From: an uncultured virus (IMG/VR IMGVR_UViG_3300043419_000665)
Taxonomy: Duplodnaviria > Heunggongvirae > Uroviricota > Caudoviricetes
IMG/VR virus record: IMGVR_UViG_3300043419_000665
Span: 1 to 64,000 of that record
Length of the DNA: 64,000 nt
Direction: 5' to 3' (one strand)
This document shows positions 1 through 63,933 of the stretch, in pieces. Position 1 is the first letter of the stretch. Each line of letters begins with the position of its first letter. The translations under genes were made by a program, and so were the position numbers. The notes below the pieces were generated by a model. It did no database searches. It was not told the DNA's origin and saw nothing but the letters and a program-made list of their open reading frames with translations.

Positions 1-1907
1 GTTTCTCCTGCATCCCCTGCTCTTTCTGCGAACTCAACAAACGCTGAAGCAAGTGCTGGATTGCCCTTCATCTGCTCAGCAATCTGTGCGACTTCTGATG
101 CCTTGATACCAAGGTCTCCAGCAATTTCTGCCTTTGCTTCTTGTGTTAAAGACTTTAGAGTTTGGCTAACTGCTGCTACCTGCTCTGCAGAAAGTTTAAC
201 TAATTTGTTATCCTTGCTTGTAAGGTTAGCAATAACTCCAGATAAATCTTCTGATGTACCAGTTCCCTTTTCAGGAATAAGTGCAGCAAGTTCTTCATCC
301 TTTATTTCAGGATTCTTTTCTGGCTCTGGTGTTGGTTCTGGCAATGGCTCTGGAGAAGGCTCTATAGAAGGCTCTATGGTAGGCTCTGGCTTTGGCTTAG
401 GCTCTTCTGTAGGTGTTGGCTTTGGCTCCTCTGGCTTTGTAGGTTCAGGCTTTGGATTCTCTGTTGGATCTGGCTTAGGGCCTGGCTGTGTTGGCTTTGG
501 ACCTGGCTCTTCTGTTCCAGTAACATTAGTTGGCTTTGGCTCTGGTTTATCTGTTGGTGGTGTAGAAGGCTTTGGCTTTTCTGGTTCAACAGTAGGCTTT
601 GGTGAAGGCTCTGGCTTAGGTTGATTTGCTGCAGCGTTTGCTGCTGCTTGCGCTATAGCCATTTGAATTTCTCTTTGCAACTGCTTGTCATAATAATTCC
701 AGGCATCTTGAATTGCATTATTAACATCATTAACTGCTTCATTAAAATCATTTATCGCATTATCTTTTTCAGACAAAGCATCTGCTGTATTATTTACTGC
801 GTTGTCGTACTCAGATTCTTTGTTTATTAGTGTTTGATTCAAGGAGTTTAGTATTGCGACTTCTTGGTTGTATACATTTAACTTATCATTATATTCTGAC
901 AAGGCATTATTATAATCTTGTTGTGCTGCATTTCGTGTTGCAAGTGCTTGATTATAGGCATCTATTTCTGACTGTGTTGGTCCTGATCCAGATGAGAATG
1001 TATTAAGATTACAAGAGAATCCTACTCCCCATCCACCAGTATAATCACAACCTGCTCCAGTCCACCCTCCAGGTATTGCCCATCCAAGATGATAAGATCC
1101 TGGTCCGCCTCCGTTATACCACCATACCTCTACATTTAAAGTTTTGTTTTGACTTACATCATATACTGGAGAGTATGCACTCCATGTTGCCCCTTGCTCA
1201 CGCCAGTTATTAACTGCAAGATTTCCATTAACAAACATTCTAAAACCATCGTCTGTGTATCCTGCAAAATATGTTGATGTCCAGTGATTCGGCACTGTTA
1301 TTTGTCCAGTAAACTTAACTATAAAATTTTGATATCTATTTCCACAAACTGGAAGTTGCATTGAGTTAGAGTTCCAAGTTCCTTCGCATAGCACAGATCC
1401 TGGGGTAGCGACATTACCCTGTCTAACAAGAGTATAAACAGTGTATGCCAAACCTGGACCTCCAGAAGACTGCATATTAGACTGTGTGGTTTGGAGATTG
1501 ATGTTGGCTATATTCAGAGAATCCTGGGCATCGTTCTTATCCTTAAAGGCATTGTTTCTATTCTCAAGAGCAATTGCTACTGTGGCTGTCTGCCCATCTA
1601 CATTTGACTGGGCAAGTTCTACTTCTTCTAATGCTAATTCTTCTGCTTCTACTGCATCTTCATAGTCTTTAATTGAGGCATCTCTTACATCCAGCAGATT
1701 TTTGGCGTACATAAACTTGTTCTCTGCTATGTCAATCATGTCTATTAGACCATCTTTATAGTCTAATTTATCTACTGCGCTATTGAGGTTTTCAATCTGC
1801 TTGGCTGCAACAGTTAGAGGGTCGTCAGAATGAGCCTCTGTAGGGGCTATTATGAGCCATCCAAAGGCTAATATTGTAGCGATTGCTATGCGTGATAATC
1901 GTTTTAT
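1..1907 (-). CDS. Secreted/surface protein: signal peptide, coiled coil, PA14-like domain, coiled coil, Pro/Glu/Lys/Thr-rich stalk; runs off the window end
   Basis: Absent from the ORF track (no stop in window); translated by hand in segments that share one frame. N-terminus IKRLSRIAIATILAFGWLIIAPTEAHS; PA14-like NFIVKFTGQITVP..YTDDGFRMFVNGNLAVNNW..VEVWWYNGGGPG (about 1080-1460); PEPK/PT-rich stalk about 320-620. Start appears to be ATA at 1907. Confidence 0.8.
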   Translation of the reverse strand, partial: MKRLSRIAIATILAFGWLIIAPTEAHSDDPLTVAAKQIENLNSAVDKLDYKDGLIDMIDIAENKFMYAKNLLDVRDASIKDYEDAVEAEELALEEVELAQSNVDGQTATVAIALENRNNAFKDKNDAQDSLNIANINLQTTQSNMQSSGGPGLAYTVYTLVRQGNVATPGSVLCEGTWNSNSMQLPVCGNRYQNFIVKFTGQITVPNHWTSTYFAGYTDDGFRMFVNGNLAVNNWREQGATWSAYSPVYDVSQNKTLNVEVWWYNGGGPGSYHLGWAIPGGWTGAGCDYTGGWGVGFSCNLNTFSSGSGPTQSEIDAYNQALATRNAAQQDYNNALSEYNDKLNVYNQEVAILNSLNQTLINKESEYDNAVNNTADALSEKDNAINDFNEAVNDVNNAIQDAWNYYDKQLQREIQMAIAQAAANAAANQPKPEPSPKPTVEPEKPKPSTPPTDKPEPKPTNVTGTEEPGPKPTQPGPKPDPTENPKPEPTKPEEPKPTPTEEPKPKPEPTIEPSIEPSPEPLPEPTPEPEKNPEIKDEELAALIPEKGTGTSEDLSGVIANLTSKDNKLVKLSAEQVAAVSQTLKSLTQEAKAEIAGDLGIKASEVAQIAEQMKGNPALASAFVEFAERAGDAGE

Positions 1908-25143: not shown

Positions 25144-25799
25144 TACGCCTCTTCCAGTGTTAGGGCGACATTCCAAAAGTCAAAGTTAAGACCGCTTCTT
25201 TTTACAACAGAATACTTAAAGTCTGAGAAAAATACTTCTACAATCTCATTATACTTATTTATATTATTAAACCTGTTGTCTGCTTCAGTTAAATCTGTAT
25301 CTTCAAAGTTTGTGTACTTATCATAAGCCAAGTAAACCCAAAAAGATCCTTTATGGTTTTCATACCAGTCAAGCAGTTCTACTCCGCCTGCTCCACCATC
25401 TGTAGTAAATTCTAATGGCTTTGGTCTTGATGGTGATGATTCCATGTCTGCATTTCCACTGGTATTAAAGTCTGCCTTGGTGTCATATGCTCTTGATGGC
25501 AGCATATCCCAAGAAACAGATATGTTTAATTTATCTGCAATGTGGTATGACCTCATACGTCCATTGATCATTCTTTCACGTTTTTCAATTCTAACGGGAG
25601 TAAAGTCTATCTCTGATCTATTATCATCAGAGAGTATTAGAAAGTCTCTAGTATTGGCTGCAGAGCCTGCATATGCCCCTACCTCGTACCCGTCTGGGAC
25701 GTAAAAACCATTAACCTTTGTTCCAGGGTTGTCTGCAAATAGCATTGCTTGTGGTCTTGAATATTTTTTTCTTCCAGACATATATGTATTAGTTGCCAT
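25143..25799 (-). CDS. Distal tail (Dit-like) protein
   Basis: Immediately after the tape measure; RMINGRMR..ISVSWDML..VALTLEE. Confidence 0.6.
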   Translation of the reverse strand: MATNTYMSGRKKYSRPQAMLFADNPGTKVNGFYVPDGYEVGAYAGSAANTRDFLILSDDNRSEIDFTPVRIEKRERMINGRMRSYHIADKLNISVSWDMLPSRAYDTKADFNTSGNADMESSPSRPKPLEFTTDGGAGGVELLDWYENHKGSFWVYLAYDKYTNFEDTDLTEADNRFNNINKYNEIVEVFFSDFKYSVVKRSGLNFDFWNVALTLEEA

Positions 25800-31700: not shown

Positions 31701-34700
31701 ATATCGTCTGCCATTTTTTCTTCTAATCCAGCAATCTTTTCTTTTATTTTTAAAAGTTTTTCTGCATTTGAAGTGGACTCTAACTCTTTTTCTAATAACT
31801 GAATTTGTTTTCTATATTGAAACTCTGTTGCATCAGCCTGTGCTTTTGCAACAGAAATATTGTTTACAGAAAGTGCTGCAAGTTGTGCAGCCTCTGTTCT
31901 ACCACCATCCATACTCATTGGTGAGTAGTTTTTATTCATTGCATCGATAACTCTATCAGATCTCTTGTTTGTCTCCTGAACAATTTGCATTCTAACCTTT
32001 AGAGGATTATTTGCTAGATCTTCTCCGTTTACACCAATAACTTCTCTTAAGTTTCCAACAATATCAGCAGTGTACTTTCTGCTGCCTAGTTGTACTCCTA
32101 TTTGATCAGCAATGTCTGCTGCTTGTGCTGCATCTAAAACTCCATCTGAAACATATGTTGATAATTGTAAAGCAAAATCTTTTGCTGCTGCCTGTGAACC
32201 AGATTTGGACATTTCTTTTACAAAGCCATCCACCATTTTCTTTCCAATTTCTGACCTTAAGAATGTATCTCCAAAGCCAGTTCCTGCTCGTTCAACATCG
32301 TTGTATGAACCAAATGATCCCTTCTTTCTTACTTCGTCCATTGCACGAGAAGCGCCAACCTTGTCTGTTATCTTTCCTATCTCGTCCATCTTATTAGTTG
32401 TTGCTGATATTGAATCTACATACTGGGCTTGCTTTTTAGCAGAATTTTCAAAATGCTTATTTAATAAAAACAGTCCTGCACCTGCTGCTACTATTGCAGT
32501 TGTAACCCAGCCAGTTGGCCCCATACCCGCAAGCATTGGAGCCATACCTGCAACTGTTGAAGCGCCCAGCATTGCCATACCGCCCGATGTATTGCCAGAC
32601 ATCATCATTGCAGATCCAGCCATGCCAAGCCCCATAGCCAATCCGCCTGATGCTACTCCAACTTTTTGTGCACGATAGTCTCTTTTTTCTTTAATCTTAT
32701 TTTTTCGTGCTTGTGCATCTTGTTTTTGTGACTGCTTAAGATTGTTTAGTTTTCTTCTTTCATCTTCGTCTAATGCTTCTTGATAATACCTTGCCTGATT
32801 ATAGTTAAGATTTGAAAGATGTTGCTGCTTTCTAAATCTGGCTCTTGCTTCATTAGTCTGTCTTCTGCGGTCTGCATCATCTAACTTTTGATTTCTTACT
32901 TGTTGGGTTACGGATTCTGATTTACCCTTAGCAAGTTTTGCTTCATCCTTTGCAACCTTTCTTAATACTTTATCAATTTCATCTTGGCTATATCCCTTTG
33001 CACGAAGATCTGCTGCTACTCTACCCTGGCGAACTGTAGGGTTTGGCATTGGTCTGTCTGCTTGAGAATCAAATCTTGGATCACCCGTAGCCATTCCAGG
33101 CATAGAGAATCCAGGTACAGATGCAAAACCTCTACGGAAATTTGCAAACTGTCTTCTAGTTACAACTGTTTGGTTTGGTGTTAATGATGTTCCTCTGCTA
33201 TCTTTACGACTTCCGCTGCTTGGAACTGCTCCAGCCTTTGCTGCAGTAGTATTAGAATCTGTTAATTTTTCTGTTCTTATTACTCTTTTGGTTTTTGGAT
33301 CAATTGTCATCTTGGTCTCACTACCGTCAGGGTTTACTAAGACTGGCAATGTTTTATCTGATCCACTCTTAAGGTTGAACTCTGGTTGAGGAGAACTATA
33401 GTACTTTGTGCCAAATCTATCATCGAGAACAGCCAAGACTCCCTTAGCAGTTTTTGCTGGTCCTAGTTTTGGGAACCTCTTTGGCTTTCTTCCTGCTTTT
33501 GCTTCACTGTCTTTGTATTGCTGCGCTAGAACATCAAGTTCTGCTGCTTTTTGGACTAACCTTGCTTCTCTTTCATTTGTTGGATGACCACCCTTTGACA
33601 TGAACTCAGCAGCCTCAGTATAAATTCCAATCTGATTTTTTGGAATAAACGGGTGTCCATTTTTTGCACTCCAGTCTAAAATCTTGCCGTGTCTAACTGA
33701 AGCGTTCATAAACTTATTTAATATACCTAAATCAAACATAGCAGAGCCTGTTAACCATTTAGCAGGGCCCTTACCAGGTTTTCCAGTTTTACTTATATGG
33801 GATAGTTCAGTTCTTAGTGCAGTATCAATTTCTTTTGGTTTGTATCCCAAAGCAACAAGTTTTTCTCTTACTGGCTTTAATGGATCATTTTTTCCTGCAA
33901 TTTTATTTTGTTCTGTAAAGGCCTTTTCTTCAGCATCTAAAACTTGATACAACTCAGAATCTCTAGGAACGTTTCCTCTCCAAGATCCACTTTCTTTTCC
34001 TACAGGGCTAACTGCATTTCTTAATCTAGAGGCAGCATTAATTTTTTTATCGCTTACAAATTCTCCATCTTTTTGTCTTACACCCATCTGATAAAAAACT
34101 TTTTGCATTACTTCTTCATATGTTCTTCCATAAACTCTTCCAGCATCTAAAGTTTTTTTGTCGTGATAAAGTCCATCTTTGTAAATAAGTTCCTCGTCAA
34201 CAAACTTAAGCATATTGCTTTGGCTCAGATAATCTTCTAAGGTCTGTGGACCAATTACTGCTGGTGTCCTTGCATTCATTTTTTGTTTTGCAATTGCATC
34301 TAGTACTCTTCTTTGTTGCTCTTCAGGTAGTTGCTTAAAATCTCTAGCAGCCTGAGCAGCAAGACCTTTTCTTAGTGTTGATATCTGTCTTTGTGATTCT
34401 GGAATATTTTTAAACTTTTCAAAATCTCCAAGTGCAAGTTTTTTAACACCTTCTGATGCACGAGCATGAACTGGATGAAGTTCATCCCAGTGTACTTTTG
34501 CTCCAGCCTTAAGTCTTTCAAGCATGTTGTTGTAAACAACTTGCTCTTCTGGATTTAAATCCCCACTCCAAGACTTAATAAGTCTTTCTAGTTTTGGAAT
34601 AGAACTATTAATCTCTCCTTTAATTGCATCATCATATTGTTTTGGTGTCATGCTTGCTGCAACACCTGATGTTTCTTGTGCAAAGAACTTCTTTGCGCCT

Positions 34701-47271: not shown

Positions 47272-50200
47272 TTAGACAGCATCAACAGTAGTTTGTTGCA
47301 AAGTTATACCTTTATAGACATTATATTCATATCCGTTTACCGTAAACACCTTTTCGGTATCAATAATAATCTTGTTAGTTCCAGTATAACTCTTGTAAAC
47401 TGTCTCTGGATTTACGCCATAATAACTACTTGAGGCCAAAACTAATACCCCGTCCCAAATAAAGGCTGAAGACTTCCAATAATCCCATTCAAGAGTAAGT
47501 GGGCTTGCATACTTCACAGCAAACCATGGGCGAATCTCTACCTGCTGGACCTCCTGAAGGTTTGTAGACTGGTAGTATGAAATAGTATTAAACGTAATAG
47601 GTCCATTAAGATTTATTGATCCAACTCTATTTTTAAAGTCTAAAATATTTGGAAAAGATATTCCCAAGAATCCCCACTCTTTTACTGTAATAACTGGCTC
47701 TTTTACAAGTTTGCCATTCCAATAAAAAGATATTCCATCTTCTAATCTTCCAGTTTTTGCATTAATTGCATAGATCTTTGCTCTTTCTCCACTTGGGTGA
47801 ATTGCAACCATATAAAACTTTATGTGAGTATTCCTTGATTGTATCTCAAATATTTCTGTTGATCCATATGGAAATGCATCTTGGTCATATCTTATGGCTG
47901 TTTGTAAGGCTATAACTTTGTAGTTTTCTGCCATTGTTTTATTTATTGGAATAGAAAGACCACGGTTAATTAGTGGGTCATAAACACCCTTTAACTCTAT
48001 CCCAGTATATCTTGTTAGATATAGGTATGGAGAACTACCCTTATAAATCGTAAAAGGATTTCTTTCTTTATAATCATAATAGAAACCAGATTTTTTATAT
48101 GGATATATCTCATTGCCAAACCTTGTTCCAATAGGGTTTGGAGATGTTGCGTTAAATGCTTGAGATGCGTACTCAAGGTTTCTAACCTTAATTCTATTTT
48201 TCAATATTCCCTTGACATTAAAATCTAAGTGTGTGACTATTGCAAGGTCCAGAGTTCTTGCATTTGATGGTGGGTAAATAATCATGTTATTAACTACTTC
48301 ATATTTTGTGTTAATCCAGTTTTCTCCTGGGACAACAAAAGAATCGTTTGATGGTTTTTCACTATTAACAAAATTTGACTCTGGCAGATTTGTTCCATTT
48401 TCAATATATTGAAAAGTAATATATGATTTTACCAAAGCATTTGACGTATCATACTTATAATTTTTGTAGGCTCTATTTTTTAAATCATCATAATTTAAAT
48501 ATCCAGTAAATAACTGATTATCTAATGATGAGTATGTTCTCTGAGTTGGCACATTGTATTGGTCATACAATTGTTCATATGTCCAAGAACCAGTTTGCTC
48601 TTCTTCAACAAAGACTGATGGGGCTGGGTAATTTATATTAAACTGAATTAGGTCTAAATCATATACATCTTTGCCTTTTTCATCTTTAATGTATTGGGCA
48701 AAATATGTAAGAGGAATGTAGTCTTCCCAATAACCTTGAATGTCAATGTCTAAAGTGTAGTTGTCAAAATATGAAGATGGTGATAAAGTATAACTTGCTG
48801 TATGTCCTTGGAAACTTTCTACTGGATAAGAATTTACACTGCCTGAGTCAACAATTTCGTCCCACTCTGCAGGATTTGTTCCAAAATAATTATCTGTTGA
48901 GTTGTATTCTACATCAATTGTGTCTGCATATAAATCAAAAACATTTTCATCGCCTACAGGGATTCCTTTTTCATTAAACAGGTACTCAATTTTTTTGTGA
49001 TTTCTTGCCGTACAAAAACCAACCTTATAAATTTTTCCAGAGAATGTTTCTGTAAGATTTGATTTTCCACCTATATAGAACTTAAGGGTGTTTACATTTC
49101 CAAAGAATGATGCAACATTTCCTCCAAAGTATTTAGAAACTTTATCTATATCTATTCCTACAGAAAACATCTCATTTACAGTAATTCCAGCAAGCGTATT
49201 TTCGTTAGACCATGAAAATTTTGCAAGTGTTATTGGCTCAGTTGATCCAGACTTTAAGATATAAACTACATCGTTACTAAGCGTAGATATTTCAAAGTAA
49301 TCTGAAGAGTTCTGAGACTCTATTCTGAAAAGTATTTGCTTGGTTGTAGGCTCTTGTAAAAACTTAAACGATCCATAAAAGGATCTAATCTTTTGATTTA
49401 AAAAATTTAAATTATCAAAATACATGTAACCGTTTTGTGCTGGGTTAAAAGAAAAAAACTTTTCAGTTTCATTTTGCATTGTTCCTAATTGAGAATATAA
49501 ACTATGAATATCAGAAGATGCTAGTACTATTTCTGGCAAAGAGTATTCTGGTGTACAAAGCATGTTATTTTCTACGGCAAGGTTATCAATTACTGCCTGA
49601 CTCCACTTTCCAATATTTGGATAAGAGTAATTGTTTGTATAATCTGCAAATGGATAATCTATATAAACTGATGATCCACTATATGCTTGATTAATTCCCT
49701 CTGGAAATTCAACTCCTTGTCCATATATAAATCTTTTCTTTGCTAATACTAGTGGTACTTGATAAGTATAAATTGCAACGCAGTCAAGTTCTACTGGAGA
49801 CACATCTTCGTATGCATAAAACCCAATCCAGTCTTGATCTTTTCCAAGTGAATTAAGTTTTGATGGTAGTTGTAATTCTGAAGTTATATAGTTAAGAGAT
49901 ATAACTTCTTCGCCATTTATAAGCATAGATGCATAGTTTTCTGAAATACGAACATGCATTAACATTGGCCTTGTCCATTCACCAACATAATAAGAACCAG
50001 AAATATTTCCAATCTTTAAAGTAAGGAATGGCCCATCAACATAAATACCATCATCAGAACCTATTGGACCAATAATTCTTTTAATAGTAGACGAGTCAGA
50101 GTTGATTCTAAGCCAAGCCTCTAACGTGTACTCTTTGTATTGACCACCTTCAGATAAAAACCCTAGCCCTGGAATGATTAAAGAGGGGTCTCCGTTGTTT

Positions 50201-50982
50201 GGCAAAAGTTTTGTAAGATTTGATGCCCCGTATACAATTGGAATTCCAGTGTTCTTTGCCATAAGGCTGTTGTCTTTGACTAAGTAATATCCTTTGTTGT
50301 CTTGTAGACCATAAGCGTTTGCCTCAATTCCAAAATATGGACTTAATGCTATGTCTGATGGTATTGATATTTTTTGAACACCTAAAGATGATGAATTAAA
50401 TTCTTCACACCACTGACCAGCGGTGATTCCATTAACAAGAAATTGATAATCATCTACAGTTGATGCTCCGCCAATATAGTTGATCTTTAATACAATTCTA
50501 AATTCTGTATTATCTTCTGGGATGTCAAATGTCTCAGAGATAAAAAACCATTTATCTTTAACAGATGTTGTGTATGACTTAAGTCTTTGAATTGTACTTC
50601 CAGATGTTGTGTCATAGTACTCATAGCCAATTTCAAAACTAGAAGCATAGGCGCTTATTGAATTAAAAAATGCACCAATTGAGAATGTGGACAGGTTGTC
50701 ATTTAGAGATGAAAAGTTAACTATATTGTTGCTTATGCAAACAATTTGTCCAAAGTCATTTTCTGTAAGAGTTCCTGTAATTTTTACTGTTTGACTACCA
50801 ATAAAAGGCTCGTCAGTCGTAATGTGGTTCACTGCCGTTCCATTGCTTATTGTCCAAGAAGTTACATTTCTGTCAGCCTCATCAACTAAACTAATGTAAT
50901 CTGCAACGTCATCTAATGCCCAAAGAGCGATGGGATGTTCTGCATATATTTTTTCTGCATAGAGGTTGGATGAACTAGACAT
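47272..50982 (-). CDS. Large probable virion protein with LamG/ConA-like domains (1236 aa)
   Basis: YAEKIYAEHPIALWALDD; YTLEAWLRI..MLINGEEV..WIGF..LDCVAIY. Confidence 0.55.
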   Translation of the reverse strand: MSSSSNLYAEKIYAEHPIALWALDDVADYISLVDEADRNVTSWTISNGTAVNHITTDEPFIGSQTVKITGTLTENDFGQIVCISNNIVNFSSLNDNLSTFSIGAFFNSISAYASSFEIGYEYYDTTSGSTIQRLKSYTTSVKDKWFFISETFDIPEDNTEFRIVLKINYIGGASTVDDYQFLVNGITAGQWCEEFNSSSLGVQKISIPSDIALSPYFGIEANAYGLQDNKGYYLVKDNSLMAKNTGIPIVYGASNLTKLLPNNGDPSLIIPGLGFLSEGGQYKEYTLEAWLRINSDSSTIKRIIGPIGSDDGIYVDGPFLTLKIGNISGSYYVGEWTRPMLMHVRISENYASMLINGEEVISLNYITSELQLPSKLNSLGKDQDWIGFYAYEDVSPVELDCVAIYTYQVPLVLAKKRFIYGQGVEFPEGINQAYSGSSVYIDYPFADYTNNYSYPNIGKWSQAVIDNLAVENNMLCTPEYSLPEIVLASSDIHSLYSQLGTMQNETEKFFSFNPAQNGYMYFDNLNFLNQKIRSFYGSFKFLQEPTTKQILFRIESQNSSDYFEISTLSNDVVYILKSGSTEPITLAKFSWSNENTLAGITVNEMFSVGIDIDKVSKYFGGNVASFFGNVNTLKFYIGGKSNLTETFSGKIYKVGFCTARNHKKIEYLFNEKGIPVGDENVFDLYADTIDVEYNSTDNYFGTNPAEWDEIVDSGSVNSYPVESFQGHTASYTLSPSSYFDNYTLDIDIQGYWEDYIPLTYFAQYIKDEKGKDVYDLDLIQFNINYPAPSVFVEEEQTGSWTYEQLYDQYNVPTQRTYSSLDNQLFTGYLNYDDLKNRAYKNYKYDTSNALVKSYITFQYIENGTNLPESNFVNSEKPSNDSFVVPGENWINTKYEVVNNMIIYPPSNARTLDLAIVTHLDFNVKGILKNRIKVRNLEYASQAFNATSPNPIGTRFGNEIYPYKKSGFYYDYKERNPFTIYKGSSPYLYLTRYTGIELKGVYDPLINRGLSIPINKTMAENYKVIALQTAIRYDQDAFPYGSTEIFEIQSRNTHIKFYMVAIHPSGERAKIYAINAKTGRLEDGISFYWNGKLVKEPVITVKEWGFLGISFPNILDFKNRVGSINLNGPITFNTISYYQSTNLQEVQQVEIRPWFAVKYASPLTLEWDYWKSSAFIWDGVLVLASSSYYGVNPETVYKSYTGTNKIIIDTEKVFTVNGYEYNVYKGITLQQTTVDAV

Positions 50983-51007: not shown

Positions 51008-53041
51008 CTACTTGTTTATTTTAATTTCACAATAGTCTGTAGTGCAGTACATCTCTCCCTGAGCCTCAAGGTTTTCTGCTCCATCATAGATAGCAGAAAA
51101 ATCAATGTGCTTCAATTTGCCGATATATGACTCGTATTGCTCTTCAGTAATCTGGGTGTATGGCTGTTGTGGATATGTGTGATTTCCCATTGGCAGGAAT
51201 GAAACTGCCTTTAATTGTCCCTCGTACATATGCAGTGCTGGAACAACATGCTTTGACTCTGTTTCCTTATCAAATGAAAGCGTTACAGAAACTCCATTAT
51301 CAGACCAGTACTTCTGAGCAGTTGCAGCAAGTGCAATCTTTTCAAATAACGTAACATCCTTTTCAGATCGTGGATGACCTGACTTGATTGGGAAGTATAC
51401 AACTGATGTGTTTGCTGATACAACGTCGTCTTCTATTGTGTACCCCGCTGCTTTGAACAAGTGCATCATTGGATCTGTGTTTCCAAATCGAACTGCACGA
51501 AGGAAGAAGTTTCCTCCAGGTCCCCAGTGAACTCCAGGAGTTGCACCAGAAAGAATTGAAACTGATCCTGATGGCTTAACTGTTGTTACACGAATTGACT
51601 CACGAACACATAGCCACTCTGAATACTGGTGGTCATAGTGACGAATCTTATTGTATCCTTCATCCATCCATTCACGAACAACTGGCAAACCCTTCTGATC
51701 TGCAAATGATGCAATACCAGTGAGTGATGTACCAATACGACGATTGCGTTGCATGATACCGTTTGTTTGTGGCCAGTGTGTTGGAACAAGCGTTACAGTC
51801 TTTCCATAAAGGTATGCAAACTTCAGGGTACGCAGGAAGTCTTCCTTAGATTCATGACGATTTAAGTGCACTTCTACAAGTGTACACAGTTCGTATGATT
51901 CTAATGGCTGCTCCGCACATGGGTTGAATCCCATCACACGATAATCCTTACCGTCTGGCGCATCCTTTAGTCGTCCATAATTACGAGCAACATCAAGCCA
52001 GATAAAACCTGGTTCTCCGTTTTCCGTAATTAAATCTACATAGTCTTCATAATTTGTTCCTACTTCTGCTGAAATAGAATTGTTAGACATCCAAGCCCAA
52101 CCTGGAGTCTCTGGATCAAATGAGTTACGCTCTGGGAACATCTCTGAGTTCTTTAGATTCATAAATGTTTCATCCCCTGCATTACCCAAAGCAAGAGTTG
52201 CTGATCGTCTTACGTTTCCTGATACCACACAGGTACCAATAAGATTTACAAGGTCTACGATAGCACGAGAGTCTAGGGTTTCTCCGCCTCTGGAGCCGAT
52301 TACACGGTCTATCTGGTCGTGCAACTTGATAAGAGGTGCAGGTCCTGATGCAACGCCTCCAAAGCCCTTGATAGGGGCTCCTAGGGGTCTGATCAAATCG
52401 TAGTTAAACTTCTGAATACTCTGGTTTGCTCTTAAGTAAGAGTTGATGAGAAGGCGTACTGATTCTACCCAGCCTTCACGAGTGTCTGGAATTTCGAACA
52501 CCTGTTCTGGCTCTGTTGGGGTATAGATTGAGAAATTCTTATCCTGTCCCACTGTGTCAAACCCTACACCAATGCCAAGCATCAATGCATCCATAACCCA
52601 AGCAAATAATGCTCCTGGATCATTCTTATCAAGGTCCTTGGTTGAAACCATGGCACAGTTTTGTAGTGCTGCTGAGTTCTTTTTCTCCATAGTCATAGGA
52701 GTTCCAAATGCCCACATGCCACGACCTGGTGGTGTCCACTTTAATTCAAACATTCTTTGGAATGCTTCTTGTGCTGACTTCTGAGCCTTATAGTCATTCC
52801 ATGGCAAACGGTTTTCTTTAGCATGATTCTTCTGAACTGAATACATACCCTCGATTACACGGCGACAAACTTCATTCCATCTTTCTTTAGTTCCATCTTC
52901 CTTCATACGAGAATATGTACGAATAAAAGTAATTTCTCCAAGTGAATTTTCTGCTGCATCCTTGAATCCAAATGGGCTTTCTACATTTTTGTACTTTTCT
53001 ACAAAATCTTCTGGAAGTTTAAAACTAAAAAAATCTGACAT
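51008..53041 (-). CDS. nrdJ: Class II (adenosylcobalamin-dependent) ribonucleotide reductase, RTPR type
   Basis: PPGRG, QNC, GNVRRSA, FNPCAEQPL, TTVKPSGSVS, C-terminal CTTDYC; no beta-subunit gene nearby. Confidence 0.93.
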   Translation of the reverse strand: MSDFFSFKLPEDFVEKYKNVESPFGFKDAAENSLGEITFIRTYSRMKEDGTKERWNEVCRRVIEGMYSVQKNHAKENRLPWNDYKAQKSAQEAFQRMFELKWTPPGRGMWAFGTPMTMEKKNSAALQNCAMVSTKDLDKNDPGALFAWVMDALMLGIGVGFDTVGQDKNFSIYTPTEPEQVFEIPDTREGWVESVRLLINSYLRANQSIQKFNYDLIRPLGAPIKGFGGVASGPAPLIKLHDQIDRVIGSRGGETLDSRAIVDLVNLIGTCVVSGNVRRSATLALGNAGDETFMNLKNSEMFPERNSFDPETPGWAWMSNNSISAEVGTNYEDYVDLITENGEPGFIWLDVARNYGRLKDAPDGKDYRVMGFNPCAEQPLESYELCTLVEVHLNRHESKEDFLRTLKFAYLYGKTVTLVPTHWPQTNGIMQRNRRIGTSLTGIASFADQKGLPVVREWMDEGYNKIRHYDHQYSEWLCVRESIRVTTVKPSGSVSILSGATPGVHWGPGGNFFLRAVRFGNTDPMMHLFKAAGYTIEDDVVSANTSVVYFPIKSGHPRSEKDVTLFEKIALAATAQKYWSDNGVSVTLSFDKETESKHVVPALHMYEGQLKAVSFLPMGNHTYPQQPYTQITEEQYESYIGKLKHIDFSAIYDGAENLEAQGEMYCTTDYCEIKINK

Positions 53042-53130: not shown

Positions 53131-53844
53131 TTACTTGTATGTTTTCTTTTGCCAAAACTTAAGCCTATATCCATGCTGAAAACTAGACCTAACTTTTATT
53201 CTTTGCTCTTCTATTTTCTTTAAATCAAAACTTTTGTCTACTTCCATTTCCCATTCTTCTCTCTTAAAAGGAAAAATTTGAGACATTGGAGTTCCTTGCT
53301 TTATGGTTCCCTTAAAATTTTTCTTTACCAAGAAAGAAAGATGACCATCAGTAAAATAAGTATCTGTATCGACTACTGCGTCAATTGCTTTTAGTGGTGA
53401 TACATTTTGGTGCATAGGACTTGTAAATAAAGTGCTATATCCTTCTTCAGTTTGAACCATCCATGTTGGATGTATTCTTAATATTTTATCACAATAAATT
53501 TCTCTATCAATTGGAAGATGTGAAACTTGCTCTATTCCGTGTTCGCTTATTAGTGCTGCCTGATATTTATTCATATGTGCAGGTAATTGAAGTTTAAAAT
53601 CTCCGTCAGTTGTATCTATATATATATCTACTGGAACTTTTAAAATATAACCCATTGACATGGCATCAAAGAATGCTTGACATTTTTTTACAGTGAGTTT
53701 TAGTTGTCCTTTTTCAGGTGTGTCTTCTCCTACAACTCCTGGCTGTTCTTTGTACCATGCAGGAATATTTTTTGTTCCTGGCTCTGGCAGTGGTGCTACA
53801 TTTGCTAAAGGAGGATACATCTGTAAAAATTTAATGATATTCAT
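53131..53844 (-). CDS. Hypothetical beta-rich phage protein
   Basis: IPAWYK..KKCQAFFDAMSMGYIL..VVDTD.Y..IKQGTP.QIFPFKRE; own TGATACAAT at 53866-53874. Confidence 0.6.
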   Translation of the reverse strand: MNIIKFLQMYPPLANVAPLPEPGTKNIPAWYKEQPGVVGEDTPEKGQLKLTVKKCQAFFDAMSMGYILKVPVDIYIDTTDGDFKLQLPAHMNKYQAALISEHGIEQVSHLPIDREIYCDKILRIHPTWMVQTEEGYSTLFTSPMHQNVSPLKAIDAVVDTDTYFTDGHLSFLVKKNFKGTIKQGTPMSQIFPFKREEWEMEVDKSFDLKKIEEQRIKVRSSFQHGYRLKFWQKKTYK

Positions 53845-53926: not shown

Positions 53927-55480
53927 TTAGAAATTAGTTTCTATTTGATAACCATCATAAACTAGGAAGCGGTCTGTATAAAACATATCATAAGGCTCAC
54001 AGTTAATTGAAATAACTTCGTGAGGAGTGTATGATATTATCAACTCAGTGATAGGAACCCAAGAATTCGTGTCTGCAGACCATAGTTCGTCTGTCTCCAA
54101 AAGATCTTCAGAGGCAATCATGCTAGAAACATTATCTCTTTTTGCAAGCATATAGTGAGTTCCTGAGTAATATTCGCCATTTATTCCAACAGAAACCTGT
54201 GCTGTTGATGTTCCTATTGCAACGATTGTTGTCTCTTTGTCAGGAATAGCAACAACATTTGTTGGAGTTTCTGTCCATGACTGAACATCTTGAACTGTAA
54301 AGTTTGATCCTAGTCCAGGGATTTCTGTAGAAACAAGAACATCTCCGACCTTAAGATTTTTTGCTTGAGTAAGCCCATCTACAGTCAAAACTAATGTGTC
54401 TATGTTTACAGAGAAGTCAAAACTTCCTCCTGGAGAAAATCCGAATGCAGGAACAAATCCAAATGCTCCGAATGCACCGAATGCTCCGAATGCACCGAAT
54501 GGTGCAAAACCAAATGCTCCGAATGCACCGAATGCTCCGAATGCACCGAATGGTGCAAAACCAAATGCTCCGAATGCTCCGAATGCTCCGAATGGTGCGA
54601 ATGAGAACACTGTTGTAACATTTCCTGATGCACCTGATGTTCCAGAACTTCCGTTTGCATTGTCTGCACGAACTGTGTATGTCTGTGAACTTCCCTGTTC
54701 TTGAGATACGTTTACAGATGTTGACCCTGTATTTCCAGACTTACCGTCAGATGCTGCCCAGAAATAATTGGTGATAGCCTTACCGCCATTATTTGGTGCT
54801 GACCATGAGACAGAGTCAGTTCCTGCTGATGGTGATGATGCGGAAGGTGCACCTGGAGTTGCAGGTACTGTAGTTGCAGTAATAGCATTTGAAGCAGCAG
54901 ATGTTGCTGAGTTTCCATTAGCATTAGTTGCTACTACTGTAAAAGTATAAGATGTTCCTGATTGAAGTCCTTGTACTGTAATTGGAAAACCATCAGTTCC
55001 AGTATAGCCACCAGAAGATGCTGTAGCAGTATAAACACTTACTGCTTTACCACCTGTAGCCCCTGCAGTATAACTAACTGTTGCTGCGCCGTTATTAAAT
55101 GACCTACCTGTTCCAACATCTGTAGCAGTTACGCCAACTGGTGTTTGAGGAACAGTAGTAACTGTTACAGAATTAGATCCAGCAGATGTTGGGCCAACTC
55201 CTGAAGCGTTTGTTCCTGTTACTGTAAATGTTGGAGTTGCTCCTGAAGAAATTCCAGTTACAACAATTGGAGATGATGATCCTGTTGCTGATTGTCCAGT
55301 GCTTGCTGTTACAGTAAATGATGTTGCAGCGTTTGGACCTGTAGGAGTAAATGTCACTGATACAGCACCATTGTTAAATGGTCTTGCTGTTCCAACATCT
55401 GTTGCTGTACCTATTGTTGGTGCGTATGGAGTTAGGAAGTCATTTGCTCCCTGACTCATTCTACCTGCTTGCTTTGACAT
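53927..55480 (-). CDS. Fibronectin-III repeat virion protein with Gly-Ala-Phe repeat and C-terminal Hint domain
   Basis: Three Fn3 repeats (SYTFTVVATNANG, VSWSAPNNGG); (FGA)n repeat; Hint blocks SVNIDTLVLTVDG..LKVGD, SGTHYML, VISINCEPYDMFYTDRFLVYD. Confidence 0.8.
   Translation of the reverse strand: MSKQAGRMSQGANDFLTPYAPTIGTATDVGTARPFNNGAVSVTFTPTGPNAATSFTVTASTGQSATGSSSPIVVTGISSGATPTFTVTGTNASGVGPTSAGSNSVTVTTVPQTPVGVTATDVGTGRSFNNGAATVSYTAGATGGKAVSVYTATASSGGYTGTDGFPITVQGLQSGTSYTFTVVATNANGNSATSAASNAITATTVPATPGAPSASSPSAGTDSVSWSAPNNGGKAITNYFWAASDGKSGNTGSTSVNVSQEQGSSQTYTVRADNANGSSGTSGASGNVTTVFSFAPFGAFGAFGAFGFAPFGAFGAFGAFGAFGFAPFGAFGAFGAFGAFGFVPAFGFSPGGSFDFSVNIDTLVLTVDGLTQAKNLKVGDVLVSTEIPGLGSNFTVQDVQSWTETPTNVVAIPDKETTIVAIGTSTAQVSVGINGEYYSGTHYMLAKRDNVSSMIASEDLLETDELWSADTNSWVPITELIISYTPHEVISINCEPYDMFYTDRFLVYDGYQIETNF
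54430..54605. repeat. 9-bp tandem repeat nested in a 51-bp unit, coding (FGA)n-FGFAP
   Basis: tgc(t/a)ccgaa units interrupted by tggtgcaaaaccaaa. Confidence 0.9.
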
Positions 55481-62351: not shown

Positions 62352-62381
62352 AAAAAGCCACCTGTTATAGGGTGGCTTTTT
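62352..62381. terminator. Bidirectional terminator between convergent genes
   Basis: AAAAAGCCACC-TGTTATAG-GGTGGCTTTTT. Confidence 0.85.
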
Positions 62382-63325
62382 TAGTTTTTATATATTGGCT
62401 TTAAATAATCTTTTGATTCAAAATCAAGGTTCATTTCTTTTTGTAAAGCCCTATATTCCTCAACATGATTTTGTAATCCGTAAACCCCAAGATCTTTTAA
62501 ATGAAACAAACTGTTCAGTCTAAGCCTTGCAGATTTGTCCCTTAAATGCCAAGTTGTGTTGTCTTGCCAATGGAATCCGCCTCTTTTGCCATTATCTCTA
62601 TCATAGTTTGTGTATATTGCATTTATTGCTGGTGCAACTAAATTAACACCTTGGACAGATAAACGAATCCCAAGACTTATCTCTTCTCCAAGAAAATATA
62701 AATATGGATCATAGGGTGCTTTCATAAACGACTTTACTGATCCAAAAGCAAAGTTTGCAGCAAAACCATAAACTTTATCTCCATACTCAAGATCCTCTAT
62801 GTCATTCCATCTTAAAAGATAAACGAATTCTTCTTCATCCCACACAGCATCTACCTTATGCATAGATTCATTTTCTGTATTAATAATATCTTTTGAGTTT
62901 CCGTTTTCATCCCACTCTTTTGTAAATCCATGTGGATATTTTGTAAATATGTAGTCTGTACCCCACTTTACAGAGCATTTAACATATTCTAAAATTAACA
63001 TTTCATCCCAATCCTGTTTTGCTCTTGAGTGAGAGTCTGTGTGAAGAAAGTATTTATATTTTTCTGATAAAAGAGAGTTTGCTAGGTGTCTTCCAGAGCA
63101 TGCTCCGTCTGCTAATCTATAATCAATTTGCTGATAAGAAATTTGTTCAGATGGAATAAAAGAAAAATCAAAGTCTATTTCTTCTCCCTCGTGTGAAACT
63201 AAAGAAAAAAATAGCCTATCTTTATGTTTTGCTTTTTCATAAAAACTTTTAACTGTATTTATTAAATCTGGATCTCTATATCCAGCAAGGCTTACAAAAA
63301 TTTTATCCATATCATTATCATCCAT
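62381..63325 (-). CDS. GT60-like polypeptide/hydroxyproline N-acetylglucosaminyltransferase
   Basis: IFVSLAGYRDP, GACSGR, YFLHTDSHSR..WD, PYDPYLYFLGEE match my recollection of the Dictyostelium Gnt1 (Pfam GlcNAc) family motifs. Confidence 0.8.
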   Translation of the reverse strand: MDDNDMDKIFVSLAGYRDPDLINTVKSFYEKAKHKDRLFFSLVSHEGEEIDFDFSFIPSEQISYQQIDYRLADGACSGRHLANSLLSEKYKYFLHTDSHSRAKQDWDEMLILEYVKCSVKWGTDYIFTKYPHGFTKEWDENGNSKDIINTENESMHKVDAVWDEEEFVYLLRWNDIEDLEYGDKVYGFAANFAFGSVKSFMKAPYDPYLYFLGEEISLGIRLSVQGVNLVAPAINAIYTNYDRDNGKRGGFHWQDNTTWHLRDKSARLRLNSLFHLKDLGVYGLQNHVEEYRALQKEMNLDFESKDYLKPIYKN

Positions 63326-63327
63326 TT

Positions 63328-63933
63328 CTATTTCATCCAACTAACTACTGCATACCTTGTTCCATCCACAACCTCAGATACTGAATGATTATAAACATAA
63401 GTTGATGGAAATATAATCATTTGATTGGCTTTTGGTTTAAAAGTTATATCAAAGCGAGGAAAATTAATTTCTCCTCCTGTATAGTTATCATTTAAATAGT
63501 AAACTGTAGACATCCTCCTGTGATAAGATGGATGATCGTCAATATGGTTTAAAAAGTGCTGACCTTTTCCATATTTTAGAATACCGTACATGTCGTGCCA
63601 CTCATGGACTACACCAAAAGAACTTTCATAATCTTTTTCAAGTGGGTCAAAATGTTGAAAAAATATATTGTTTAAATTTGTAAAAAATGCATCAGAAAAA
63701 TTTGTTGCTTCTAATTCTACAACTCCACCAAGATACTGAACTCCAACAGTCTGTGTATCTCTTATTTTAGGATTTTTCATTGAATCTTCACCTACCCCTG
63801 ATTTTACCCTAGCCTCGTTCCAACTCAGTCCCGCTGAAGCCAAACCTTCTTCTATATCGTTATACAAGTTTTTACTGTCAGGAATAACATCGCTATATAC
63901 AATTATTCCTGGGGCAATCTCTTCTTTTATCAT
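63328..63933 (-). CDS. Prolyl-4-hydroxylase-like 2OG-Fe(II) oxygenase
   Basis: ILKY..GQHF..HID, STVYYLND.YTGGEINFP, IIFPS..Y.HSV..V..GTRYAVVSW. Confidence 0.85.
   Translation of the reverse strand: MIKEEIAPGIIVYSDVIPDSKNLYNDIEEGLASAGLSWNEARVKSGVGEDSMKNPKIRDTQTVGVQYLGGVVELEATNFSDAFFTNLNNIFFQHFDPLEKDYESSFGVVHEWHDMYGILKYGKGQHFLNHIDDHPSYHRRMSTVYYLNDNYTGGEINFPRFDITFKPKANQMIIFPSTYVYNHSVSEVVDGTRYAVVSWMK

Follow-up and report, generated by a model that had tools for sequence, protein, structure and literature searches.

A C-terminal Hint domain with Ser at position 1 on an FN3-repeat protein of an uncultured virus, a candidate self-removing cap

We found that the last 161 residues of an FN3-repeat protein encoded in the window (64,000 nucleotides of the uncultured virus record IMGVR_UViG_3300043419_000665) form a genuine intein/Hedgehog-type (Hint) domain, as judged from an AF2 model and from structure and profile matches. 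Comparison of the protein with its orthologues leads us to favor, with some reserve, the proposal that these residues are a self-removing Hint "cap" whose departure would free a sticky Phe-Gly-Ala tail.

The Hint domain and the protein that carries it

The ORF list and translation place the gene at 53927..55480 (-), encoding 517 amino acids plus a stop codon (53927-53929). It sits in a fiber-like gene block, and this gene neighborhood is the whole basis for regarding the product as a virion protein, which the initial annotation had stated outright and which we retain as a suggestion. Over its C-terminal part the protein is 55-69% identical to 17 metagenome homologues. The N-terminal peptide, residues 1-18 (MSKQAGRMSQGANDFLTP; 55427..55480 (-)), is conserved in an 18-row clade alignment, with S9, N13, D14, F15, L16, and P18 near-invariant, and is probably an attachment element. 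Pfam fn3 matched the protein at E 2e-8 in three stretches. FN3 domain 1 covers about residues 19-110 (55151..55426 (-)), its approximate borders being taken from TTVP linkers in the 18-row alignment; domain 2, about residues 113-204 (54869..55144 (-)), contains the best Pfam stretch (residues 167-198) and is missing from the shorter homologues, with gaps in 11 of 18 rows; and domain 3, about residues 207-290 (54611..54862 (-)), is the best conserved, with many invariant columns from V205 to T289. It is followed by an aromatic low-complexity repeat of 66 residues (291-356; 54413..54610 (-)), translated as (FGA)n broken by FGFAP and ending ...FGFSPGGSFDF, which at the DNA level includes a tandem array at 54454-54594 (period 51, 2.8 copies, 97% matches). 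Homologues differ in the length and the unit of this repeat (AFG, SFVPY, FGFSP). A collagen-like (Gly-Ala-Phe)n structure was not favored, as FGFAP units interrupt the period of 3 and relatives have the five-residue units FGFSP and SFVPY. Between 53000 and 58300, predicted promoters and terminators were no more numerous than in shuffled sequence, and a profile search with a DUF6065-like neighbor matched no PDB sequence.

The 161 C-terminal residues (53930-54412 (-)) start with SVNIDTLVLTVDG, contain YSGTH, and end with FLVYDGYQIETNF. The range 53927..54412 assigned to the domain by the initial annotation takes in the stop codon. The Hint domain proper comprises 153 residues, Ser357 to Asp509 (53954..54412 (-)), as defined by AF2, Foldseek, VIA-align, the family profile against PDB, and hhalign. 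Block A opens with Ser357 (54410..54412 (-)), the predicted nucleophile; cleavage is predicted at Phe356|Ser357. Block B is S439-G-T-H442 (54155..54166 (-)), the equivalent of TxxH in the family alignment and in the profile alignment to the Aes123 PolB1 intein, and Tyr508-Asp509 (53954..53959 (-)) replaces the intein His-Asn of block G, as seen in the family alignment and with VIA-align. Translation adds only the tail GYQIETNF (53930..53953 (-)), whose +1 residue, Gly510, is not a nucleophile; the tail is short, as had been noted, although it has eight residues rather than seven.

The AF2 model of the domain had a pLDDT of 94.1 and a pTM of 0.86, with pLDDT dropping to 79 and then 44 across the final 11 residues. 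Foldseek with this model gave 41 PDB matches at E<=1e-3, headed by BIL2, Cth BIL, and inteins, and all of the matches listed had the Hint fold; the fold on which the initial annotation depended is thus present. With VIA-align, the Ssp DnaB mini-intein, Hedgehog (1at0), the Mtu RecA intein, BIL2, and Cth BIL scored Z 16.4-16.0, the best chains having an rmsd of about 2 Å over 125-133 residues, and 82 of 997 chains reached Z>=8. Model residue 1 (Ser357) coincided with residue 1 (Cys1) of inteins and with Cys258 of Hedgehog, and model residue 153 (Asp509) with the residue that ends the Mtu RecA and Npu DnaB inteins. The family profile matched PDB sequences 9hth_A (E 1.6e-5), 2lwy_A (a BIL; 7.4e-4), and gp41-1 (1.1e-3), and its end, ...FYTDRFLVYD|G, was paired with intein ...FFGNDILVHA|S.

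The 161-residue sequence alone behaved quite differently in searches: it gave no Pfam family at E<=10, and hence no Hint-clan model, no match in PHROGs or NCBIfam, and only chance-level GINS matches (E 0.8 and 1.5) with phmmer against PDB. As no Pfam Hint-clan model matches the window's own sequence at E<=10, its recognition by eye in the initial annotation was not trivial. When Pfam was run on 94 family members, Intein_splicing matched 8, PT-HINT 2, Hom_end_hint 2, and Hint_2 1, with scores either under the cut-offs or close to them. ESM Atlas leads began with unnamed viral clusters, followed by PT-HINT, Intein_splicing, Vint, and Hint clusters at 0.90-0.92, and BFVD returned uncultured-phage relatives at TM 0.80-0.86, some auto-named "Hint domain containing protein" by UniProt. 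We concluded from the family-profile matches, the AF2 model, Foldseek, and VIA-align that the Hint motifs lie far above chance; these methods agree with the initial annotation on a Ser-type Hint domain that has Ser where Cys1 would be, SGTH as block B, and Tyr-Asp in place of His-Asn. The domain lies at the C-terminus of an FN3 protein in a fiber-like gene block.

Distribution of the family and conservation of its catalytic positions

The Hint family is large and essentially viral, with 96 representative clusters and 324 IMG/VR loci. Searched with a narrower alignment, 185,579 species genomes of cellular organisms yielded 35 pattern matches of which three were relatives, all on MAG contigs; two of these contigs are about 10 kb long, and on the third (93.6 kb; L084) the match is confined to 28 residues, at E 1e-4. 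The single-protein scan of cellular genomes found no relative among 52 pattern matches. In tblastn searches of 50,697 GenBank phage records the whole protein had no match at E<=1e-5 and the domain none at E<=1, so that work on cultured phages would miss this architecture despite its 324 IMG/VR loci. In the literature searched, neither phage fibers or FN3 proteins with a terminal Hint domain nor phage fibers with FG-type repeats are described. Domain partners in the 94 family members include FN3 (39/94), PASTA (20/94), and Ig-like modules.

Positions were counted over 113 family segments, 24 of which are truncated at position 1. The remainder have Ser (82), Cys (6), or Trp (1) there; that is, 88 of the 89 segments reaching position 1 carry Ser or Cys exactly at the domain border, and Ser357 is invariant (18/18) in the clade alignment. 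Of the 110 segments with a residue at the block B His position, 106 retain the His; in the window's protein this residue (His442) pairs with the TADH histidine of the Aes123 PolB1 intein. The first residue of the block is Ser in 85 segments and Thr in 24. The terminal residue is Asp in 90 segments and Asn in 16, and the penultimate one His in 47, Tyr in 40, and Phe in 18. In class 1 inteins the block F Asp (F:4) helps to activate position 1. The Asp of VYDIEV in 9hth, which occupies F:4, pairs with Ser at domain residue 135 of the window's protein, where the family has Ser (82), Thr (11), or Cys (7). Further near-invariant residues, in domain numbering, are W46, R92, D93, and C138-E139-P140-Y141-D142. 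A class 3 intein, with its nucleophilic block F Cys, was rejected; the conserved Cys of INCEP lies three positions past F:4, Ser is conserved at position 1, and Thr is not the penultimate residue.

The replacement of the F:4 Asp by Ser and of the penultimate His by Tyr in the window's protein are observations that count against a discarded cap. They are also what might be expected if the domain had no catalytic role and remained in place beyond the flexible repeat as a distal folded knob with a part in binding or assembly; many non-catalytic residues are strongly conserved, which would fit a binding surface as well, and the distal end of a fiber-like protein is the usual site of receptor-binding knobs. 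A mere knob, however, would need neither the Ser or Cys found at position 1 in 88 of 89 segments nor the block B His found in 106 of 110, and close relatives replace the domain with a stop codon or with a self-cleaving S74 domain. We regard a non-catalytic knob as unlikely.

Alternative C-terminal modules and the predicted cleavage

A search with residues 1-295 gave 1887 matches at E<=1e-5, and C-terminal modules were scored in the best 120 of these 1887. The N-terminal signature was present in 106 of the 120, irrespective of the C-terminal module. Among these 106 orthologues, 42 end with a Ser/Asp Hint domain, 24 with a Cys/His-Asn Hint, four with a Cys...CHK Hint, and one with a truncated Hint; 28 end within or shortly past the aromatic repeat; two (P0188 and P0195; Pfam E 1.7e-10 and 5.8e-13) have Peptidase_S74 straight after the repeat; one has a Cys knot; and in four the end is unclear. 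Domain-free ORFs accounted for 10 of 58 resolved loci, nine of them having no Hint domain in any frame for about 3 kb downstream and one being a frameshifted Hint. Comparison by hhalign of the window's Hint domain with a Cys1/His-Asn orthologue (98.7%, E 2e-16) paired S|VNIDT with C|IDQDT and LVYD|G with IVHN|L, the sister domain ending ...IAGNMIVHN|L. The tree built from the last FN3 domain has at least 18 changes of module type, compared to a mean of 45.8 after shuffling. Its alignment has 91 columns and leaves 52 of 96 inner branches unresolved, and these counts are confounded by shared ancestry; well-supported clades of the tree contain mixed module types. To judge from the sequences, the Ser/Asp Hint, the Cys/His-Asn Hint, S74, and a stop codon have been exchanged repeatedly at a single position. 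The coupling of Ser with Asp and of Cys with Asn between the Hint subfamilies is likewise confounded by shared ancestry.

Cleavage after ...GGSFDF is the best-supported reading, because it is at this point that orthologues have S74, a Cys/His-Asn Hint, or a stop codon; the exposure of the repeat by self-cleavage, put forward in the initial annotation, thus gains a comparative basis. The domain-free orthologues end ...TAAF, ...TAAY, or ...TAWT, as in ...APGGFTAAF, which resembles the predicted new end ...SPGGSFDF. As S74 domains act on trimers and as trimerization chaperones, the sharing of a site with S74 does not prove that the Hint domain does an equal job. We propose that, once the domain has folded, Ser357 would attack the Phe356-Ser357 peptide bond in an N-to-O acyl shift, with His442 of block B straining and protonating that bond, as the equivalent His does in inteins and Hedgehog. 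The resulting ester would be hydrolyzed, the acceptor most likely being water, to release the Hint domain with its eight-residue tail and leave ...GGSFDF and SVNIDTLVLTVDGLTQAK... on either side of the cut. Asp509, at the intein Asn site, could aid Ser activation or ester hydrolysis, or could cut off the tail by cyclization. What would remain as the mature product is the N-terminal peptide followed by the three FN3 domains and, as a free aromatic C-terminus, the Phe-Gly-Ala repeat.

The residues beyond the domain bear on a further possibility, splicing of the kind performed by type A BILs and inteins, in which cyclization of Asp509 and attack of the tail α-amine on the Ser357 ester would join GYQIETNF to ...GGSFDF and excise the Hint domain. 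According to passages of PMC4031507, type A BILs splice by such a route without a +1 nucleophile, and some inteins accept Asp, Gln, or Glu in place of Asn; the statement in the initial annotation that a Hint domain without the terminal Asn cannot splice was therefore too strong. All 18 rows of the clade alignment keep G510, Y511, and Q512, which is unexpected for a part that is thrown away and may point to some function of the C-terminal junction. Elsewhere in the family the +1 residue is Ser in 41 and Thr in six of the 113 segments, preceded by His-Asp, so that all canonical splicing positions are filled in those branches; and in P0182, P0161, P0221, and P0090 the Hint domain is followed by a longer tail (20-184 residues) or a further domain. 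In the window's protein, by contrast, the +1 residue is Gly, which excludes canonical splicing, and the penultimate residue is Tyr rather than His. Tails in the family are mostly 1-13 residues long, the ends of the domain-free orthologues are unrelated to a GYQ-like peptide, and even BILs give more cleavage than spliced product (PMC4031507). Splicing of this protein seems to us very improbable.

The nucleophile that resolves the ester could also be something other than water (a sugar, a lipid, or Lys on a protein of the virion or host), which would leave the FG-repeat C-terminus covalently attached to the acceptor. The top Foldseek match, BIL2 of the BUBL1 locus (6y75, E 6.3e-7), joins its N-terminal flank to a Lys of other proteins through an isopeptide bond, as described in part of PMC8616854; Hedgehog HhC was aligned at Z 16.3; and the near-invariant W46, R92, D93, and C138-E139-P140-Y141-D142 have no assigned role. 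The eight residues after the Hint domain, however, leave no sterol-recognition or other acceptor-binding region, and no candidate acceptor emerged. Conjugation, moreover, is not required for the job of the protein, because orthologues manage without any C-terminal domain (28 of the 106 among the best 120 of 1887) or with S74, a pure hydrolyzer. We give such a transfer only a small chance, and the label "Hedgehog-like" in the initial annotation, together with its ligation to a lipid, sugar, or partner protein, overstated the case. A bolder form of the idea, to which we attach equally little weight, would make the Ser1/Asp Hint a disguised ligase, in which the Phe-Gly-Ala tail tethers the appendage to the virion or the host envelope and Ser-His-Asp with C-E-P-Y-D select the acceptor; if true, it would be a phage counterpart of Hedgehog cholesteroylation or of BUBL BIL2 conjugation.

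If the Hint domain is a removable cap, possible reasons for having one include solubility, the timing of assembly, and chaperoning. The exchange of modules suggests three unrelated phage routes (Hint, S74, and a plain stop codon) to a fiber-type protein with an exposed aromatic repeat end. The family constitutes a large phage-borne Hint branch in which Cys1 to Ser and terminal Asn to Asp were swapped together, and the sister branch that retains Cys and Asn in the same proteins offers a natural experiment on Hint chemistry. A 153-residue domain with Ser-dependent self-cleavage, should it behave as predicted, could serve for tag removal under oxidizing conditions.

Comparison with known systems

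Type A BIL domains, such as the C. thermocellum BIL (PDB 2lwy; Amitai 2003 and Dassa 2004, as cited in PMC4031507), share much with the window's domain: a mini Hint without an endonuclease, located outside a conserved enzyme site, lacking a +1 nucleophile and ending in a block G-like sequence, carried by variable surface-type host proteins and expected mainly to cleave. The Cth BIL matched in fold (Z 16.0, rmsd 1.9 over 127 residues) and in profile (E 7.4e-4). Type A BILs, however, have Cys1 and His-Asn, whereas the window's Hint has Ser1 and Tyr-Asp (His, Tyr, or Phe with Asp in the family), follows an aromatic repeat at the very C-terminal end of its protein, is spread among viruses rather than bacteria, and has no Pfam Hint-clan match. 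Type B BILs differ further, as they have no similarity to intein block G, with which the end of the window's domain aligns. BIL2 of Tetrahymena thermophila BUBL1 (6y75, 6tmm), the top structural match (TM 0.67/0.71, Z 16.2), would by analogy resemble it in processing the C-terminus of the preceding domain. BIL2 nevertheless has Cys1 and a terminal Asn and transfers a ubiquitin-like domain to a target Lys (reported in part of PMC8616854); the window's protein has neither acceptor nor ubiquitin-like partner.

Hedgehog HhC is a C-terminal Hint domain that cleaves at its own N-terminus via an ester and never splices. It aligned well (1at0, 6tyy; rmsd 2.1 over 130 residues), with model residues 1..155 on Hedgehog 258..402, but it has Cys1 and a sterol-recognition region that recruits cholesterol, where the window's Hint has only GYQIETNF. 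The class 1 mini-intein Aes123 PolB1 (9hth), the best profile match, also uses a Ser nucleophile; its blocks F and G, VYDIEVDGNHNFFGNDILVHA|S, pair with vysincEPydlFFTeklLvyd|s, and the block B His is aligned as well. In contrast to class 1 inteins, the window's domain is terminal and not an in-frame insertion in a host protein, and orthologues without it simply stop after the repeat; it has Gly at +1, an eight-residue tail, no homing endonuclease, Ser for the F:4 Asp, and a penultimate Tyr. PT-HINT (PF07591), which two of the 94 family members match, is a Hint peptidase of polymorphic toxins, found in long filamentous or repeat proteins from which it releases the terminal part (as stated in part of PMC3482391); it precedes and frees a C-terminal toxin domain, whereas only the short tail follows the window's Hint.

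Peptidase_S74 (PF13884), found in endosialidases and tail fibers, is a self-detaching chaperone of tail-fiber and low-complexity proteins that works through a Ser-Lys dyad, as described in part of PMC7824862. Its fold and chemistry are unrelated to those of the Hint domain, and Pfam found no PF13884 match in the window's protein (P0001, P0002). It is not a family relative; it is the closest known functional analogue, occupying in P0188 and P0195 the identical place right after the aromatic repeat.

Domain layout and fold of the Hint protein

The Hint gene is a single ORF of 517 aa at window 53927-55480 on the minus strand, as assessed from the ORF list and translation. Its product begins with the conserved peptide MSKQAGRMSQGANDFL..., followed by three FN3 domains (Pfam fn3, E 2e-8, in three stretches; borders from A1, an 18-row alignment of the protein with close metagenome homologues), by a 66-residue aromatic repeat, (FGA)n with FGFAP interruptions, for which the coding DNA is a tandem array of 51-bp period at 54454-54594 (97% matches), and by the 161 residues from Ser357 to the C-terminus flagged in the initial annotation as a Ser-type Hint domain. 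Every motif quoted there was present in the translation; the tail past the Asp of LVYD, given as seven residues, has eight. Several ORFs of 74-102 aa (e.g. ...PNAPNAPNAPNG...) occur in other frames of the repeat on both strands of window 54394-54704; we rejected these as genes and regard them as arising from the tandem array with its 51-bp and 9-bp periods.

As a single sequence the Hint domain gave no match in Pfam (E ≤ 10), PHROGs or NCBIfam, and only chance-level matches to the PDB by phmmer. Close relatives comprised 17 proteins at 55-69% identity, and a search of 1.84 billion proteins gave 96 representative clusters at E ≤ 1e-3, of which 73 also passed E ≤ 1e-10. An AF2 model, made from an alignment of 94 family sequences, had a pLDDT of 94.1 and a pTM of 0.86, and Foldseek matched it to 41 PDB chains at E ≤ 1e-3; among the matches listed, all were inteins, bacterial intein-like (BIL) domains or Hedgehog HhC. 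By VIA-align, Z was 16.4 to the Ssp DnaB mini-intein, 16.3 to Hedgehog 1at0 (rmsd 2.1 over 130 residues), 16.2 to BIL2 and 16.0 to Cth BIL, with Z of at least 8 for 82 of 997 chains. Residue 1 of the model paired with residue 1 of inteins and Cys258 of Hedgehog, and residue 153 with the final residue of both the Mtu RecA and the Npu DnaB intein; thus, Ser357 occupies the nucleophile's place and Asp509 that of the terminal Asn. A 19-sequence family profile run against PDB sequences found the Aes123 PolB1 intein (1.6e-5), Cth BIL (7.4e-4) and gp41-1 (1.1e-3), and its alignment to solved Hint proteins matched up the His of block B as well as blocks F and G. The previously claimed Hint fold is thus supported by AF2, Foldseek, VIA-align and the profile search, and with the predicted fold, block A and block B all found, we assign the domain to the Hint superfamily.

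Conserved positions and distribution of the family

Conservation was counted over 113 aligned domain segments. Position 1 was Ser in 82, Cys in six and Trp in one, the other 24 being truncated; the first position of block B was Ser in 85 and Thr in 24, and the block B His was present in 106 of 110. The penultimate position was His (47), Tyr (40) or Phe (18), the terminal position Asp (90) or Asn (16), and the +1 position Ser (41), Gly (31), Thr (6) or another residue (35). W46, T61, R92, D93 and a block F C-E-P-Y-D motif were also near-invariant, and in the alignment to 9hth, the PDB entry of the Aes123 PolB1 intein, the F:4 Asp of class 1 inteins aligned to Ser in the family. That the domain is merely a non-catalytic knob seems to us rather unlikely, as it has a near-universal nucleophile exactly at its border.

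In 173 pooled Hint segments the first and terminal residues were coupled, although the counts are not independent because relatives carry the same labels: the pair was Ser-Asp in 100, Cys-Asn in 29, Ser-Asn in eight, Cys-Lys in four, Ser-Glu in three, Cys-Ser in one and Cys-Asp in none. The Ser/Asp and Cys/Asn forms are true sisters, which hhalign joined at 98.7% (E 2e-16), with S/VNIDT opposite C/IDQDT and LVYD/G opposite IVHN/L. Tails past the terminal Asp were 1-13 residues in most members and 20-184 in a minority, the long ones including a second Hint-like domain in homologue P0090 and a Flg_new domain in P0221. In these two and in homologues P0182 and P0161, the Hint ends in His-Asp-Ser or Tyr-Glu-Ser and is followed by 42-184 residues forming a helical peptide or one of those domains; because all canonical splicing positions are filled, these branches may carry out true splicing.

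The source IMG/VR record has 73,784 bases and is an estimated 67% complete. Relatives of the Hint domain were encoded in 324 IMG/VR stretches, with an identical copy in locus L002 on a 98.6-kb contig. Another contig carries two diverged repeat-Hint genes about 9 kb apart (loci L032 and L044, whose domains are 58% and 53% identical to the query). A first scan of prokaryote genomes (185,579 species, one genome each) gave no relatives and a second scan of the same genomes gave three, all on MAG contigs, two of about 10 kb and the third a 28-residue match (E 1e-4) on a 93.6-kb contig. Among 50,697 GenBank phage records there was no match to the whole protein or the Hint domain. The nearest BFVD models (TM 0.80-0.86) came from uncultured Caudovirales, and UniProt automatic names of the BFVD relatives were 'PASTA_pknB domain containing', 'Fibronectin type III' and 'Hint domain containing'. 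N-terminal partners of family Hints were FN3 (39/94), PASTA (20/94) and various Ig-like modules, the linkers to the Hint being of low complexity and either Pro-rich or aromatic.

Gene neighbourhood

Every gene of the Hint locus is on the minus strand. In order of transcription, a 600-aa fibre-like protein (tail-fibre PHROGs), a 149-aa protein within the fibre-like block and a 717-aa fibre-like protein (Mtd_N, E 1.1e-13) precede the Hint gene, which is followed by a 237-aa DUF6065-like gene (53131-53844; the window's own match, E 0.0019), a class II (B12-type) ribonucleotide reductase (51008-53041) lying after the fibre-like block and before the portal gene, a 1236-aa protein (47272-50982) just upstream of portal, and the portal, protease and major capsid genes. 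Of 80 related loci, 70 had a gene like that for the 717-aa fibre close by, and about 40 kept the whole order. The capsid was nearest to Streptomyces phages (45%) and the reductase to an Actinomycetia phage (61.5% identity). Description of the Hint protein as a virion protein agrees with these fibre-like neighbours, and it is from the neighbourhood only that we infer it.

Several features of the surroundings were recorded separately. Identity of the reductase is about 96-99% between most related loci, and its structural neighbours are far less conserved. PF19541 (DUF6065) matched 14 of 27 homologues of the 237-aa protein, and of 80 related loci 41 have its gene after the Hint gene. The protein had 245 metagenome homologues and no sequence match in the PDB, and 49 haloarchaeal tailed-virus records contain relatives at 30%. 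In many related loci, e.g. locus L003 (6487-7406, plus strand), the Hint and DUF6065-like genes are separated by two small ORFs of 168 and 138 aa, which the window does not have. The 1236-aa protein had no PHROG match, a weak Laminin_G_3 match (E 4.4e-4) and about 50% conservation in related loci. A single ORF of 3957 aa at 25799-37672 on the minus strand has a PhageMin_Tail domain (E 4.9e-26), and its neighbours are small genes and the gene for a 1437-aa minor tail protein. We presume that it encodes an exceptionally long tape measure protein, in which case the tail would be very long too. Two adjacent genes at 62381-63933, also on the minus strand, lie 7-8.5 kb upstream of the Hint gene start. 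One encodes a 2OG-Fe(II) oxygenase of prolyl-hydroxylase type (PF13640, E 6.2e-18); the product of the other is a glycosyltransferase belonging to PF11397 'GlcNAc' (E 5.5e-36), a family that includes the Skp1 hydroxyproline GlcNAc-transferase. It is conceivable that the Pro-containing aromatic repeat is the substrate of this pair. Among phages, distant relatives of the transferase occurred only in four jumbo Xanthomonas or Stenotrophomonas phages.

C-terminal states of orthologues and the predicted reaction

With residues 1-295 as query, 1887 proteins were found at E ≤ 1e-5, and we classified the best 120, of which 106 had the N-terminal signature in common. These 106 carried a Ser/Asp Hint (42), a Cys/His-Asn Hint (24), a Cys...CHK Hint (4), a truncated Hint (1), Peptidase_S74 directly past the repeat (2; E 1.7e-10 and 5.8e-13, both exceeding the Pfam cut-off) or a Cys knot (1); 28 ended in or just past the aromatic repeat, and four were unclear. 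Among 80 loci retrieved with a domain-free orthologue as query, 58 ORFs were resolved and ten of these had no Hint; in nine of the ten there was no Hint in any frame within about 3 kb downstream, and the tenth was a frameshifted Hint. We concluded that the domain-free state is real. On a weakly resolved tree built from 107 rows and 91 columns of the last FN3 domain, module type changed at least 18 times (shuffled mean 45.8, minimum 3), and clades with SH-aLRT of at least 95 were of mixed type, e.g. 20 'none' with six Ser/Asp, ten Ser/Asp with two 'none', and six Cys/Asn with four Ser/Asp. The predicted new end, ...FSPGGSFDF, resembled the C-termini that domain-free orthologues encode (...APGGFTAAF, ...SPGGPAFTAAY). 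PMC7824862 describes S74 as a chaperone which detaches itself and serves tail-fibre and low-complexity proteins. Since orthologues swap Hint, S74 or stop at the same place and have similar C-termini, the comparison suggests one mature product reached by three phage routes: a stop codon, S74 self-cleavage or a Hint domain. This comparison is our strongest argument on Hint function.

We propose that the reaction is probably an N-to-O acyl shift at Ser357, aided by His442, and that the ester is then hydrolysed. Asp509 may activate the Ser or water, or may remove the tail by cyclisation; according to PMC4031507, Asp, Gln or Glu can stand in for Asn in inteins. Transfer of the ester to a nucleophile other than water has a precedent in BIL2 of BUBL1, which makes an isopeptide bond (PMC8616854), but domain-free and S74 orthologues exist and the protein has no acceptor-binding region, and we give transfer only a small probability. 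Ligation of the conserved tail onto the N-terminal part, as in type A BILs, appears very improbable: although the GYQ of the tail is invariant, the junction has Gly/Tyr, and the natural C-termini of domain-free orthologues are unrelated to the tail. Canonical splicing is excluded in this protein because the +1 residue is Gly.

Our literature search, with supplements outside it, found no description of such a terminal Hint architecture. Three features of class 1 inteins are absent: the Hint protein has no nucleophile at +1, its Hint is not inserted into a host protein, and the F:4 Asp is missing. Type A BILs have Cys1 and His-Asn, retaining the latter while mostly cleaving (PMC4031507), and the Hint protein has neither; type B BILs are defined by the absence of block G similarity (same source), which the Hint protein possesses. 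Hedgehog has a sterol-recognition region that the Hint protein lacks, and the label 'hedgehog-like' goes too far. The domain departs from defining features of class 1 inteins, of type A and type B BILs, and of Hedgehog.
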